64,000 bases of DNA from Nitrosarchaeum sp. (GTDB lineage Archaea; Thermoproteota; Nitrososphaeria; Nitrososphaerales; Nitrosopumilaceae). The translations under genes were made by a program, and so were the position numbers. The notes beneath the pieces were generated by a model. It saw only the letters and a program-made list of their open reading frames with translations, ran no database searches and was not told the origin of the DNA. This document shows, piece by piece, positions 8,237 through 40,506 of the stretch; the stretch's first letter is position 1, and every line of letters begins with the position of its first letter. The stretch spans positions 1,120,001-1,184,000 of the forward strand of contig OZ245020.1 of NCBI GenBank assembly GCA_965223865.1, read 5' to 3'.

Positions 8237-9409
8237 TTGACGAGGGTCACAATTACTATAAAGAAATCCAAGCATGCAAACAAGTTTGGAAAACTAATTT
8301 TTGATGATGGTACTGTTCTTGACGGAATGGGTTTTGGTTACTCTACGACCGTTTTTGGTGAAATCGTGTTTAATACTGGAATGGTAGGATATAACGAAAC
8401 ACTAACCGATCCATCTTACAGTGGTCAAATTCTTACTTTAACTTATCCTCTTGTGGGAAATTATGGTGTTCCAGATCCTGCTAGTATGGATGAAGATGGG
8501 ATATCCAAATTCTTTGAATCTGATAAAATCCAAGTGAGAGGATTAGTTGTTCATGAATTGTCATTGACTGCTAGTCATTGGAATCTCTTTATGACTCTAG
8601 ATGAGTGGCTTTACAATGAAAAAATTCCCGGAATCTCGGGAATTGATACTAGAGAACTAACGAAGAAACTACGAACGAAAGGCGTTATGATGGCTGCTTT
8701 GGTAGTTTCTGAAGAAAACATCGATATTGATGAAGTCAAAAAACAATTGGCATCAGCTCCAAATTATAATTCAGAGAAATTCATGGCTGCTGTTTCGACA
8801 AAAGAAGAACAGGTATATGGTTCTGATGAAAAATCTGTGGTTGTAATTGATACTGGTGCAAAAAATGCAATTCTTAGAAATATCCGTGAGATTGGCTACA
8901 AAGTTATCAAACTTCCATGGAACACTACCTTTGAAAAAATTCTTTCTTACAAACCAAAAGGAGTTGTAATTAGTAATGGACCAGGTGATCCTCAAAACTG
9001 TCCTGAAACAGTACTAGTTGCAAAAAAATTAATTGAAAATAATATTCCTACTTTGGGAATTTGTTTAGGTGCTCAAATTATTGGCTTAGCTGGTAATACA
9101 GAAACGTATAAACTAAAATACGGTCATCGAGGGCAAAACAAACCTTGTGTTAATCTAGAAAATAATCAAGTATATGTTACAAGTCAAAATCATGGTTATG
9201 GAATTACCCCAGAATCTTTAAGCAAATCTGAATTTGATTTATGGTTTACAAATGCAGACGACAAAACAGTTGAAGGAATAAAACACAAAAAACAAAATTG
9301 TGTTGCTGTGCAGTTTCATCCTGAAGCAGCACCAGGTCCTTATGATTGTAAATTTGTCTTTGAAGAGCTTAAACACCTTATGGAGGAAGGAAAGTCTGCC
9401 AAAGAATGA
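8237..9409 (+). CDS. carA: Carbamoyl-phosphate synthase small subunit
   Basis: GEIVFNTGMVGY, TDPSY, SNGPGDP, GICLG, SQNHGY, QFHPEA. Confidence 0.97.
   Translation: MTRVTITIKKSKHANKFGKLIFDDGTVLDGMGFGYSTTVFGEIVFNTGMVGYNETLTDPSYSGQILTLTYPLVGNYGVPDPASMDEDGISKFFESDKIQVRGLVVHELSLTASHWNLFMTLDEWLYNEKIPGISGIDTRELTKKLRTKGVMMAALVVSEENIDIDEVKKQLASAPNYNSEKFMAAVSTKEEQVYGSDEKSVVVIDTGAKNAILRNIREIGYKVIKLPWNTTFEKILSYKPKGVVISNGPGDPQNCPETVLVAKKLIENNIPTLGICLGAQIIGLAGNTETYKLKYGHRGQNKPCVNLENNQVYVTSQNHGYGITPESLSKSEFDLWFTNADDKTVEGIKHKKQNCVAVQFHPEAAPGPYDCKFVFEELKHLMEEGKSAKE
9382..9387 (+). promoter_or_regulatory. Shine-Dalgarno-like GGAGGA for carB
   Basis: Lies 8 nt before the CTG (9396) that opens the canonical CarB N-terminus xPKNESISKILVLGSG. 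Confidence 0.55.
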
Positions 9410-12400
9410 GTCGATAAGTAAAATTCTTGTACTTGGTAGTGGGGCAATAAAAATCGGAGAAGCCGGCGAGAGTCGCAAAAACGACCGCTAATTTGACTAC
9501 TCCGGAAGCCAATGCCTTAAAGCAATACATGAAGATGGACTGAAAAGTATCTTAATCAATCCAAACATTGCTACAATTCAGACTGACACTAGATTTGCAA
9601 ATCAGGTTTATCTTCTACCTGTGACTCCTGATTATGTAGAATCTATTATCGAAAAAGAAAGACCTGACGGGATAATGTTGGCATATGGAGGCCAGACAGC
9701 ACTTAATTGTGGTGTAAAACTAGCTGAAGCAGACATACTACAAAAATATGGAGTCAAGGTTCTAGGTACACAAGTAAATGGAATTCAGAGAGCTGAAGAT
9801 AGACAACTCTTCAAAGATTCTATGAATGAATGTGGAGTTCCAATACTCAAAAGCAAAACCGTTACTAATTTTGATGATGCAAAAAAGGTAGCAGAAGAGC
9901 TTAACTATCCTGTAATTATTAGAGTTGCCTATACTCTAGGTGGAAAAGGTGGAGGGGTTGCATTTAATGAAATTGAATTACATGAAATTGTTGAAAGGGG
10001 ATTAAAAGCAAGTCTAGTCGGCCAAGTCCTTGTTGAAGAATATGTTGGTCACTGGAAACAAATTGAATATGAAGTCATGCAAGACTATGATGGTAACAAC
10101 GTGATTGTATGTAATATGGAAAATGTCCTTTCTATGAAAGCACACACAGGAGATAATATTGTGGTTGCTCCTTCTCAAACAATTGATAATCGTGAGTATC
10201 ATATGTTACGTTCTGCAGCTTTGCGAGCGACAAAACACGTAGGAATAGTAGGTGAATGTAACATACAGTATGCACTTGATCCTGATTCTGATAGATATGT
10301 TGCAATTGAAATAAACCCTAGATTATCACGTTCCTCTGCACTTGCAAGTAAAGCTACTGGATATCCTTTAGCATACATGTCTGCAAAAATAGGATTAGGA
10401 TACAATTTGTCAGAATTGATAAATAGAATTACAAAAAGTACAACTGCATGTTTTGAACCTTCTCTTGATTATGTTGTATGTAAACATCCAAGATGGGATT
10501 TTGCAAAGTTTGAACTTGTAAATAGAAAATTAGGTCCTACGATGAAATCCGTCGGTGAAGTCATGGCAGTTGGAAGAACTTTTGAAGAATCTCTCCAAAA
10601 AGCTATCCGAATGTTAGATATTGGAAATGATGGTTTAGTTCTAAATCGTCAAAATGGCAAATCCTATACAGAAGAAGAAATTGAAGATAAATTGTCTCAT
10701 CCTGATGATCAAATACTATACCATGTAGCATTGGCTCTCAAAATGGGAATTTCTGTTGAACGAATTTACAAGTTATCTGCTATAGATCCTTGGTTTATTG
10801 AAAAAATAAAAAACATTTCAAATATTGAGCAGGCTCTGAAAAATTCTGAATTAGACAAAGATATACTTTGGAAGGCTAAAAAAATGGGTTTTTCGGATAA
10901 ACAAATTGGACGCTCAAAAGACAAACCAGTAGATTTTGTGCGTAATTTACGTAAAAAATATGGAATTGTGCCATCTGTTAAACAAATTGATACTCTTGCG
11001 GCTGAATGGCCTGCTGTCACAAATTATCTGTATTTGACATATGGTGGAAATTCTCATGATATAGAAATTTCACCTGATGAAAAAGGGATTGTTGTTGTTG
11101 GTGCTGGGCCCTATAGAATAGGTAGTAGTGTGGAGTTTGATTGGGGTACTGTAAACATGGTGTGGGGATTGCAAGAAAATGGAGAAAAAAATATCTCCGT
11201 GGTAAACTGTAATCCTGAAACTGTTTCTACAGATTATGATATATGTACAAGATTATATTTTGAGGAATTAACTCAAGAGAGATTATTAGACATTGCTGAT
11301 TTTGAAAATCCTAAAGGAGTTATTACATGTGTAGGTGGTCAAACTGCAAATAACTTGACTCCTGGACTTGCAGAACACGGTGTCAATATTATGGGAACAA
11401 GTGCTCATGATGTAGATAGAGCTGAAGATCGTTCAAAATTTAGTGCCGAACTTGACAAACTTCATATCCAACAACCACGATGGCAAGCTTTTTCAAATCT
11501 TAACGAAGCAAAAAATTTTGCACTAGATGTTGGCTTTCCTGTAATTGTTAGACCTTCTTACGTTCTTTCTGGTGCTGCTATGAAGGTTGTATGGTCGCAA
11601 GATGAACTCAAAACATATGTGAAAGAGGCTACGGATGTTTCGCCTGATCATCCCGTTGTTATTTCCAAATTTATGCTAAATTCTCTTGAGGTTGATGTAG
11701 ATGGAATTAGTAATGGAAAAGATGTAGTGATTGGAGCAATAGTTGAGCATATTGATAGTGCAGGAGTTCACTCTGGTGATGCTATGATGTGTATTCCACC
11801 TTGGCGTTTAAGTAATAAAATTATTGAGACTATTACTGAATATACAAAAAAAATTGCAACTACTTTTAATGTTAAAGGACCTTTCAATTTGCAATTTTTA
11901 ATACACGATGATCATGTCTATGTAATTGAGCTCAACATTCGTGCATCTCGTTCTATGCCTTTTGTGTCTAAACTTGTAAAAACCAACCTTATATCATTGG
12001 CATCAAAGGCAATTTTAGGAAAGCCTTTACCCCAAATACCAGAAAATAAGTGGCAAAAAATTCCAAACTTTGGAATAAAGGTGCCTCAATTCTCATTTAT
12101 GCAGCTAGATGGTGCAGACATTGCCTTGGGTGTAGAAATGCAATCTACAGGAGAGGCTGCATGCTTTGGAAACAGCTTTTTTGATGCATTAGCTAAAGGA
12201 TTAACTTCTGTAGGATATAATCTCCCTGAGCATGGAACTGCACTTGTAACAGTAGGAGGTGCTCAAAACAAAGAAAAATTATTACAAACAATTGCAAAGC
12301 TAAAAAGTCTAGGATTTCAAATTTTGGCAACTGAACACACTGCAGAATTCTTCCAGGAGAAAATCGGGGAGATTCAAGTGGTTCACAAAATCTCTGAACC

Positions 12401-12659
12401 TGAAAGAAAACCAAACATCAAAGATTTACTTTATCAAAGAAAGATAGACTTTATCATAAATATTCCAAGTACATCCACATTGGAAAAATATGTTGGTATG
12501 CTTGATGATGAATATCAAATTAGGAGAAAATCTTTAGAATTAGGAATTCCTGTTTTAACAACAATTGAATTGGCCGACTCTTTTGTAAAAACATTGGAGT
12601 GGTTAAAGGATAATCAAACAACAAAAAATCCAATAGAACCTTATGATCATATGGGATGA
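9396..12659 (+). CDS. carB: Carbamoyl-phosphate synthase large subunit; exons 9396-9470 + 9492-12659 give 1080 aa after removing a 21-nt insertion
   Basis: PKNESISKILVLGSGAIKIGEAGE|FDYSGSQCLKA...NPNIATIQTD is in frame with ORF 9621-12659, which has two ATP-grasp repeats (EINPRLSRSSALASKATGYP; HSGD) and an MGS-like C-terminus. Confidence 0.93.
9471..9491 (+). other. Putative 21-nt bulge-helix-bulge/loop mRNA intron in carB
   Basis: AGTCGCAAAAACGACCGCTAA with in-frame TAA; central helix GGCG/CGCU, 3-nt bulge AGA, intron stem GUCG/CGAC; predicted cuts AG|A and AA|U rejoin GAG-TTT. Confidence 0.85.
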
Positions 12660-39595: not shown

Positions 39596-39973
39596 ATGCA
39601 AGATCCAAATCCTATGCCATGGGGTGCACTTGACAGATATCAAGCCCATTTTATAGTGAGAAAAGACGCAGGTCGTGGAGTGTCAAATTATCTTGCAAAA
39701 ACAAAACTTACGACTAGAGGTCATTTTGCAGCAAAGACTGTTGAAAAGGTTGAGTGGGATGGCAATGGCAGTCTTGCAACAATACTCAATGAAGATGCTG
39801 AATTAAATGAAATGATTGCTAGGCAATCTGTTTCTGATGCTACCATTTATGTTGAGCCAACAGATGGTGCTATCAGAATACGAAACAAGTGGAAAAATCA
39901 TCTTGATTTTGGAATTACAAAAGAACTTTTTGAAATCTATGACCGAATTGCTGGTCACATAAAAAACATTTAG
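39596..39973 (+). CDS. Hypothetical protein
   Basis: 125-aa ORF directly following the previous one. Confidence 0.65.
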   Translation: MQDPNPMPWGALDRYQAHFIVRKDAGRGVSNYLAKTKLTTRGHFAAKTVEKVEWDGNGSLATILNEDAELNEMIARQSVSDATIYVEPTDGAIRIRNKWKNHLDFGITKELFEIYDRIAGHIKNI

Positions 39974-40506
39974 GCTTTCCACCAATCTAAAGCTAGAAAA
40001 TCTATTTTTTCTTTTCCTTTCGGTATTGCGAAGATGAATTGTTTTCTGACTGTAGTTGCAAGTCTACCAGCTAACACTATTCCTATTGATGTAATTGGTT
40101 CATTTCTACCGTATACCTGAATCAAGTATGGGGCATGATCAATTCCAGGTCCTCGTTCATATACTGCAAAGTCACATCCAAACTTTATTCCTGGATTGAT
40201 AATGTATCCTTTGTTTCTAAAATTTTTGTAAACTTGGTATTTTTTATCAAAGTCATGATATTCTTTCTTACAAATTTCAGTCATTTTATCAATAGTTATT
40301 TTTTGTTTAGATTTGTAAATTGAAATTTTTTTATTTTCAAGTAAATATAGTCCCTCTATCAAGTCTAAAATTAACGGAACGTTGATTTCTTCTGGTTTTG
40401 GTTTTGGGATTCCTATTGGTTTTCCATAATAACCTTGGCTGAAAAGTTTGCGGGAATCTTCAATGCTCCAAACAATTATTCGATTTTTTATGATCTCGCT
40501 TTTCAT
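39970..40506 (-). CDS. endA: tRNA-intron (splicing) endonuclease, catalytic subunit
   Basis: GIKFGCDFAVY, HAPY, RLATTVRK supply the Tyr/His/Lys triad; GYYGKPIGIPKPK loop. Confidence 0.93.
   Translation of the reverse strand: MKSEIIKNRIIVWSIEDSRKLFSQGYYGKPIGIPKPKPEEINVPLILDLIEGLYLLENKKISIYKSKQKITIDKMTEICKKEYHDFDKKYQVYKNFRNKGYIINPGIKFGCDFAVYERGPGIDHAPYLIQVYGRNEPITSIGIVLAGRLATTVRKQFIFAIPKGKEKIDFLALDWWKA

Follow-up and report, generated by a model that had tools for sequence, protein, structure and literature searches.

A Predicted Relaxed Bulge-Helix-Bulge Intron in the Coding Sequence of carB in Nitrosarchaeum and Related Archaea

The carB Gene Is Divided by a 21-Nucleotide Insert

We analyzed a stretch of 64,000 nucleotides (nt) from Nitrosarchaeum sp., hereafter the window (assembly GCA_965223865.1, contig OZ245020.1, positions 1,120,001 to 1,184,000 of the forward strand), in which the gene carB is interrupted by 21 nt at window positions 9471–9491. 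The insert is real and is beyond chance. It is very probably an obligatory intron of the precursor messenger RNA (pre-mRNA), defined by a relaxed bulge-helix-bulge (BHB) motif of the HBh′ type, and it lies in the sole carB gene of the genome. An original prediction, made from the letters of the window, had proposed a BHB-type intron at this place. Its core, a relaxed BHB intron within the carB coding sequence, is supported here by geometry, reading frame, covariation, the codons on the flanks, copy number and the splicing machinery of the genome.

The insert, AGTCGCAAAAACGACCGCTAA, holds seven in-frame codons (SRKNDR followed by a stop), the last of which is TAA. It splits the CarB motif G(Q/E)AGEFDYSG, which is unbroken in intronless relatives, and it sits 75 nt from the carB start codon. 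Frame translation from the CTG at 9396 showed that the unspliced message encodes a peptide of only 31 amino acids (aa), and the frame 3′ of the insert is open for 1055 codons. The split of the motif by 21 nt ending in TAA and the 31-aa peptide had both been described in the original prediction and were borne out by the sequence and this translation. The predicted parts of the gene are as follows.

9396..9470, forward strand: carB 5′ exon, 25 codons, beginning with CTG and ending with GAG (Glu); from the match to TIGR01369 and the start column of the relatives.
9471..9491, forward strand: putative carB intron, 21 nt, consisting of A, the stem h′ (GUCG/CGAC), its loop CAAAAA, the 3′ strand CGCU of the central helix H, and AA; from the sequence and its relatives.
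9492..12659, forward strand: carB 3′ exon, 1055 codons and the stop; from TIGR01369 and Pfam domains.

The two exons were compared with the CarB model and with an uninterrupted homolog. Exon 1 (25 aa) matched TIGR01369 at model positions 1–24 (E 3.2e-5), and exon 2 (1055 aa) matched TIGR01369/NF003671 at positions 25–1051 with 1376.8 bits, where the cut-off is 1027. Against the intronless 1080-aa CarB of a record named Nitrosopumilus cobalaminigenes, exon 1 covered residues 1–25 (22/25 identical) and exon 2 covered residues 26–1078 (88% identical, no gaps). Because the exons are colinear with both the model and the 1080-aa homolog, removal of exactly 21 nt gives a colinear CarB of 1080 aa (25 + 1055 codons). 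This exact length was found in 117 of the best 120 listed relatives' proteins. The earlier statement that removal would restore GAG-UUU and a 1080-aa CarB therefore holds on the exon matches.

Only one carB was found in the genome, which is 99.98% complete. The next best matches were ATP-grasp fragments with 25% and 36% identity. No separate intact copy of carB thus accompanies the interrupted one, as the original prediction needed.

Geometry and Covariation of the Motif in Relatives

Minimum-energy folds were calculated with RNAfold for stretches of 81 nt and 53 nt, with 200 shuffles each. They reproduced the structure drawn in the original prediction. Besides the elements listed below, RNAfold placed a 2-base-pair (bp) step AG/CU between 9461–62 and 9497–98.

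9454..9459, forward strand: 5′ strand UCGGAG of the outer exon-exon helix h, pairing with 9500–9505.
9500..9505, forward strand: 3′ strand CUCCGG of helix h, in the Tyr-Ser-Gly codons; from RNAfold and the alignment.
9465..9468, forward strand: 5′ strand GGCG of the 4-bp central helix H, in exon 1, pairing with 9486–9489.
9486..9489, forward strand: 3′ strand CGCU of the central helix H, in the intron; from RNAfold and the relatives.
9469..9471, forward strand: 3-nt 5′ bulge AGA, with a predicted cut after 9470 that follows the rule of PMC12397907.
9472..9485, forward strand: intronic hairpin h′, GUCG/CGAC (9472–75 with 9482–85) with a 6-nt loop CAAAAA; from RNAfold.
9490..9496, forward strand: relaxed 3′ bulge or loop AA/UUUGA, where the slash marks the predicted cut after 9491; RNAfold gives a 5-nt bulge AAUUU at 9490–94.

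We then counted the features of the motif at the 132 unique insert-bearing sites found among all loci collected. The counts were anchored and used no alignment program. Insert length ranged from 17 to 38 nt and was most often 21 nt (43 sites). At 77 of the 132 sites the length is not divisible by three; the other 55 inserts are in frame, and each of them has a stop. No insert can therefore be translated through, and since the gene is essential, single-copy and otherwise intact, the insert must be removed at the RNA level or bypassed.

The 5′ bulge has 3 nt at every one of the 132 sites (AAA 100, AGA 26, AAT 4, AGT 1, AAC 1). The stem h′ is 3–10 bp long; its pairs 1–3 are paired in 132/132 sites and pair 4 in 126/132, with pair types that vary (pair 2, for example, is U-A at 75 sites, C-G at 47 and U-G at 10). 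The central helix is paired at H2–H4 in 132/132 sites and at H1 in 112/132. Exactly 2 nt stand between H and the Phe codon in all 132 (AA 93, AT 21, AG 18), and a cut after the second nucleotide of each bulge would join GAR to TTY in 132/132 sites at every insert length.

A covariance model was built from 23 sequences, and 65 sequences were aligned to it, of which 64 distinct rows were counted. This alignment is fitted to the structure; the anchored counts agree with it. Over the 64 rows, 95.4% of the cells were paired, compared with 17–61% in slid controls. Double-change cells numbered 73, against 24.8 in shuffles, and the observed covariation score was reached by 0/500 shuffles. The stem h′ was 100% paired, with double changes at three of its four pairs (in 28, 17 and 26 rows). 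In 2 rows the central helix has changed on both sides, from C-G to U-A. One Gly codon that went from GGC to GGU has its counterpart in a G-to-A change within the intron. In the outer helix, columns 9–13 paired with 84–88 in 64/64 rows, and U-G stood at columns 8/89 in 65/65.

The search with Rfam 15 covariance models gave 0 matches at E ≤ 1 in window positions 9200–9800. The covariance model built from the 23 sequences matched the window only at 9447–9512.

The exon codons around the insert differ between the two kinds of alleles. In the 132 intron-bearing sites the first Gly codon is always GGA, and Ser is always encoded by TCC or TCT; 128 sites have GGC for the second Gly, and 126 have TAC for Tyr. 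In five intronless loci the Gly codons are GGT, GGC or GGG and the Ser codon is TCT or TCA, and GGA was found in about 26 of the 118 intronless matches listed (hand count). Judged by this comparison, the flanking codons are held for pairing: alleles with the intron keep them fixed, whereas in alleles without it they vary freely. In the window, 8/12 flanking codons end in G or C, compared with a third-position GC content of 0.208 for the rest of carB, and the 53-nt region has a GC content of 0.547 compared with 0.341 for the genome. Both values confirm the GC-rich exon flanks that had been pointed out in the original prediction.

Splicing Machinery and Proposed Mechanism

Two paralogs of EndA, 178 and 199 aa long, are encoded in the genome, and each has the N-terminal as well as the catalytic domain (PF01974/PF02778). 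The gene for the first, which is alpha-like, lies in the window about 30 kb from the carB intron, and the second, beta-like paralog lies elsewhere on the contig.

39970..40506, reverse strand: endA, catalytic-type (alpha-like) splicing endonuclease subunit, 178 aa; from profile matches, and the presumed intron-cutting enzyme.

The closest Protein Data Bank (PDB) chains of the alpha-like EndA are crenarchaeal: 2cv8_A (3.4e-42), 3p1z_B, 3ajv_B and 2zyz_B. At the aligned catalytic position the 178-aa paralog has a His, which the 199-aa paralog lacks. We take this His to belong to the Tyr-His-Lys active site of EndA. RtcB is also encoded in the genome (591 bits). ARAGORN predicted introns in 8/45 tRNAs, seven of them of 12–71 nt. 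A 'tRNA-SeC' that ARAGORN called in the same genome at 297493–297868, with a 278-nt intron, is probably a false or unusual call.

Sources given by PMC identifier are cited here from a part of their text. In PMC12397907, the bulge A13-U14-A15 has its scissile phosphate at A15, that is, the cut falls after the second bulge nucleotide. The cutting rule that the original prediction had applied agrees with this, and it places the predicted cuts after 9470 and 9491. According to the cited part of PMC5829648, relaxed motifs are cut only by (αβ)2 and ε2 endonucleases, and the (αβ)2 type is conserved in Thaumarchaeota. By analogy with that work, we infer that the EndA of this host would accept relaxed motifs.

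The following mechanism can be proposed. In the pre-mRNA, exon 1 and the intron would form the 4-bp helix; on its 5′ side a 3-nt bulge would be closed by the short intronic hairpin, and on its 3′ side a looser bulge of 5–7 nt would be closed by exon-exon pairing. On either side of the 4-bp helix, an (αβ)2-type splicing endonuclease would cut behind the second nucleotide, after 9470 and after 9491. RtcB would then ligate the exons, so that GAG and UUU meet as Glu-Phe in a 1080-aa CarB. We infer the cutting, the ligation and the exact bonds from the sequences compared here.

The genome was also scanned for further candidates. Candidates had to combine a 4-bp helix with a 3-nt bulge and a stem of 4 bp or more, and had to yield a fusion of open reading frames; the scan was not exhaustive. 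It returned 1231 raw candidates, 51 of them with at least 4 G-C pairs, and carB ranked first. No similar-looking second intron in an mRNA was seen among the other candidates of this non-exhaustive scan, which included no homology test.

Observations That Weigh against the Intron

Several observations weigh against a spliced BHB intron. Taken by itself, the fold of the window is weak: its z value was −2.29 for 81 nt (5/200 shuffles as good) and −1.49 for 53 nt (14/200). The fold alone is not beyond chance, and its significance comes from the relatives. In the outer helix only one-sided changes were seen, and its constraint may be coding as much as structure.

The 3′ splice site is non-canonical, with a loop of 5–7 nt (a 5-nt bulge or a 7 × 2 internal loop) in place of a 3-nt bulge, a departure that the original prediction had already noted. 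The pair closing it, C9464-G9495 (columns 18–79), is unpaired in 35/64 rows, and RNAalifold offered an alternative in which G9465 pairs with the third base of the Phe codon. Of the features that define a BHB, the motif has the 4-bp central helix and the 3-nt 5′ bulge closed by h′ with at least two Watson-Crick pairs, and it lacks the canonical 3′ bulge. It is therefore classed as relaxed HBh′ and not as canonical.

RNA evidence was sought in public sequencing data. Among the 24 sequencing runs found, the RNA runs held only 0.05–0.09 of the sampled words. The assembled Logan contigs of four runs (three metatranscriptomes, and one run of unknown kind with a share of 0.86) were compared with positions 9300–9700 at 80% likeness. 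Neither a joint across the insert nor a 21-nt deletion was present in the contigs of these four runs; as contigs drop rare or short variants, this result does not speak against splicing. One contig of an RNA library, from a relative, covers carA sequence and exon 1 and continues into the insert, and it may represent pre-mRNA or carried-over DNA. It alone bridged the boundary of exon 1 and insert with at least 31 letters on each side.

Two further observations were made in these data. In one public run the contigs bear the same insert; this run may be the source sample and is not counted as independent. Another RNA-library contig has a loose end at 9490, where upstream sequence of the ...GEAAE type continues straight into the FDYSG exon. 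Its source is another organism, in which the motif is unbroken, and the contig has no bearing on the intron.

Distribution of the Insert and Its Possible Origin

A BLAST search with a 501-nt DNA query found the locus in 33/41 relatives, and 30 loci were fetched. The insert stands at the same codon junction in 25 of these 30, and the other 5 are uninterrupted. The downstream frame is open to the end of the locus in 30/30 (574–603 codons), and the 5′ exon peptide is kept among the loci, with synonymous variation.

Here, we extended the comparison to the whole order by scanning 401 sampled genomes for 12–42 nt between the two halves of the motif, with the reversed pattern as a control. The insert pattern was found in 215/401 genomes and the control in 0. 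The motif was uninterrupted in 116/401, and the remaining 70/401, many of them incomplete genomes, showed neither pattern. Within the window's own family, 71 genomes with the insert and 41 with the uninterrupted motif account for 112/112. The insert is present in three of four other genomes of the window's genus and absent from one; in another genus it is present in 12/47 genomes and missing from 35/47. Named insert-bearing records, among the matches listed, are Candidatus Nitrosopumilus salarius BD31, Nitrosopumilus sp. b1 and Candidatus Nitrosotenuis chungbukensis MY2. Insert-bearing metagenome-assembled genomes (MAGs), among the matches listed, are labelled Nitrosarchaeum, Cenarchaeum, Nitrosopelagicus, Nitrosotalea, Nitrososphaera, Nitrosocosmicus and Nitrosomirales.

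On a protein tree of carB for the 30 loci, presence and absence of the insert need 5 changes, at least 3 of which are forced by well-supported branches; the root of this tree is not fixed. Because the insert is present in all major clades, the simplest account would be one old gain before the main ammonia-oxidiser families diverged, followed by several precise and clean losses. The original prediction had proposed to compare carB 5′ ends across relatives, and both covariation and changes of presence and absence were found in this comparison.

A second carB intron was considered for Nitrosopumilus salarius BD31 and Nitrosotenuis chungbukensis MY2, where stops stand further down the gene, and was rejected, as tblastn showed plain frameshifts. 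The downstream part of carB has one frameshift in the former and several in the latter, which look like sequencing or assembly errors.

Inserts were also met under more distant labels. In a MAG labelled uncultured Methanosarcinales (L128; genome about 1.1 Mb), the same junction holds an 18-nt insert built to the same design, and the CarB shares 51% identity with that of the window. The same MAG has a second, frame-shifting insert of 29 nt with a hairpin, between GSGA and VKIGEAGE; its removal restores the frame, yet its fold does not cleanly fit the cut rule. In a MAG labelled Woesearchaeota (L155; about 1.0 Mb), this junction likewise holds an insert of that design, 17 nt long; 32 codons further on, an in-frame TAG stands in the place of the GAG of L128. 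In the order of this genome, the insert pattern was found in 1/151 sampled genomes, namely that genome itself. These two genomes of about 1 Mb give hints of a possible lateral spread or homing of a BHB intron that encodes no protein. In a MAG labelled Heimdallarchaeota (L109), a 2.5-kb contig carries a carB 5′ end with a 21-nt intron like that of the window's family; this contig is probably mis-binned.

Function of the Intron and Alternative Explanations

Most simply, the intron may be an old element that is tolerated by its hosts. A stronger claim is that it forms a conserved post-transcriptional checkpoint rather than a passive relic, and that it is in addition an element reaching the same codon junction in distant lineages. 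We give this combined claim a low probability. If the checkpoint were true, the synthesis of an enzyme for arginine and pyrimidines would be tied to the capacity for RNA splicing and ligation in some of Earth's most abundant archaea.

A regulatory gate would be a different use of the same spliced intron. The spliced fraction would shift with arginine or pyrimidine supply, with stress, or with tRNA-splicing or RtcB capacity, and would so tune CarB. Such a gate would suit an intron that is retained across most sampled families, that lies only 75 nt from the start codon, and whose in-frame forms all contain a stop (55 inserts), which leaves the unspliced message cleanly silent. The presence of the relatives' insert-bearing sequence in RNA libraries would suit it as well. 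However, the several clean losses (5 tree changes, at least 3 forced; 35/47 genomes of one genus without the insert) argue that the intron is dispensable, and no conserved element beyond the cutting motif was seen in its loop. We therefore regard a regulatory gate as unlikely.

The insert might also be removed from the RNA by a nuclease and ligase other than EndA and RtcB, and the non-canonical 3′ site could be read in this way. However, the dimensions that are conserved are exactly those that define EndA substrates. Moreover, the genome encodes the broad-specificity two-subunit type of this enzyme, whose nearest solved relatives are chains of crenarchaeal heterotetramers, and the two-subunit type cuts relaxed motifs in the cited part of PMC5829648. 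Another enzyme pair is thus improbable.

The insert might instead stay in the mRNA while the ribosome hops over it, in the manner of programmed bypassing in phage T4 gene 60. The hairpin directly after the last codon of exon 1 and the stops inside the gap recall such a system. Bypassing needs matching take-off and landing codons, as in gene 60. In carB the take-off codon would be GAR, but at all 132 sites the triplet that precedes exon 2 opens with C, T or A and is never GAR. What is conserved is the 4-bp helix, the 3-nt bulge and the 2-nt ruler of a splicing endonuclease, and not a pair of codons. This makes bypassing very improbable.

A decaying pseudogene, or an artefact of assembly or sequencing, would account for the in-frame stop 25 codons into the gene and for automatic calls that would be truncated, but its probability is close to nil given the insert in 215/401 independently assembled genomes, the intact downstream frame in 30/30 loci (1055 codons in the window), the 5′ exon peptide conserved with synonymous variation, and the lack of a second carB.

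Comparison with Known Systems

Full-text literature searches, with subscription papers and supplements outside their scope, returned no report of an intron in carB. This agrees with the remark in the original prediction that no carB case was known. The cbf5 pre-mRNA intron was reportedly the subject of work by Watanabe in 2002 and by Yoshinari in 2006. In the cited part of PMC7714728, cbf5 is the only other mRNA case reported as of 2020, and the cited part of a paper of 2025 still names crenarchaeal cbf5 as the only coding-sequence intron of the BHB kind (PMC12397907).

The cbf5 intron of Crenarchaeota described by Yokobori in 2009 resembles that of carB in being short and often a relaxed BHB inside a coding sequence (PMC2738675). 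According to the same source, the hetero-oligomeric tRNA-splicing endonuclease excises it, it occurs patchily, having been both gained and lost, and it is mis-annotated as a frameshift or truncation, and the carB intron may be likened to it in these points. Zero cbf5 introns are listed there for Cenarchaeum symbiosum and Nitrosopumilus maritimus. The two genes differ in that cbf5 encodes an RNA pseudouridine synthase of Sulfolobales and Desulfurococcales, whereas carB belongs to core metabolism in mesophilic ammonia-oxidiser families. They also differ in that splicing of cbf5 was shown by experiment, whereas the carB intron is known here from sequence comparison. If it is spliced, carB would be the second gene with a BHB intron in its coding sequence; its hosts would be mesophiles of another phylum-level lineage, and the enzyme concerned one of central metabolism.

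Haloferax volcanii HVO_1309 has a BHB intron in its mRNA (PMC7714728). As is predicted for carB, the splicing endonuclease acts here on a messenger and not on tRNA or rRNA. In contrast to carB, the intron lies in the 5′ untranslated region, interrupts no frame and has a canonical motif, and its host has a homodimeric-type enzyme. The non-canonical HBh′/BHL tRNA introns of TACK archaea share the motif class of carB: the 4-bp helix is strict, one side has a 3-nt bulge and an intronic helix, and the bulge on the other side is disrupted (PMC5829648, PMC12397907). Unlike in these tRNAs, the host RNA of the carB intron is a messenger, and the exon-side pairing is built from codons with fixed third positions.

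The T4 gene 60 gap is like that of carB in being short, with a hairpin and a stop inside a coding sequence, but carB has no matching codon pair (0/132). In the splicing of HAC1/XBP1 in eukaryotes, IRE1 cuts small stem-loops of the mRNA and a tRNA ligase or RtcB connects the exons, which alters the reading frame of the product; the process is regulated by stress. It works like the splicing proposed for carB, with an unrelated nuclease, IRE1 (PMC13149111).

The insert is frequent, being present in at least 215/401 sampled species genomes, including records named Nitrosopumilus, Nitrosarchaeum, Nitrosotenuis, Nitrosopelagicus, Nitrosotalea, Cenarchaeum, Nitrososphaera and Nitrosocosmicus. Gene callers are blind to such an intron and likely call carB truncated or a pseudogene in these genomes. 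No listed protein with more than 91% identity covers the N-terminus of exon 2, though genomes with 95% DNA identity exist; this is consistent with miscalling and is no proof of it. A miscalled carB could lead to a wrong arginine or pyrimidine auxotrophy in metabolic reconstructions. The natural alleles with and without the intron within one genus could also serve as a test system for mRNA splicing under coupled transcription and translation.

The Start of carB and Its Upstream Neighbour

Two features lie directly upstream of the 5′ exon.

8237..9409, forward strand: carA, carbamoyl-phosphate synthase small subunit, an open reading frame with the Pfam domains CPSase_sm_chain and GATase; it shares its final 14 nt with the start of carB.
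9382..9386, forward strand: GGAGG, Shine-Dalgarno-like, 9 nt 5′ of the presumed carB start and also found upstream of the start column in relatives; its function is presumed.

Both the M of MPK... in relatives and the first position of the CarB model align with the start column of carB. In the window this column holds CTG; among the 30 loci it holds CTG in 16, ATG in 7 and TTG in 4, and all 16 CTG loci bear the intron. In 6 of the 16 there is no in-frame ATG, GTG or TTG between the upstream stop and the intron. This suggests that carB may be initiated at CTG, or that its initiation may be coupled to the termination of carA.

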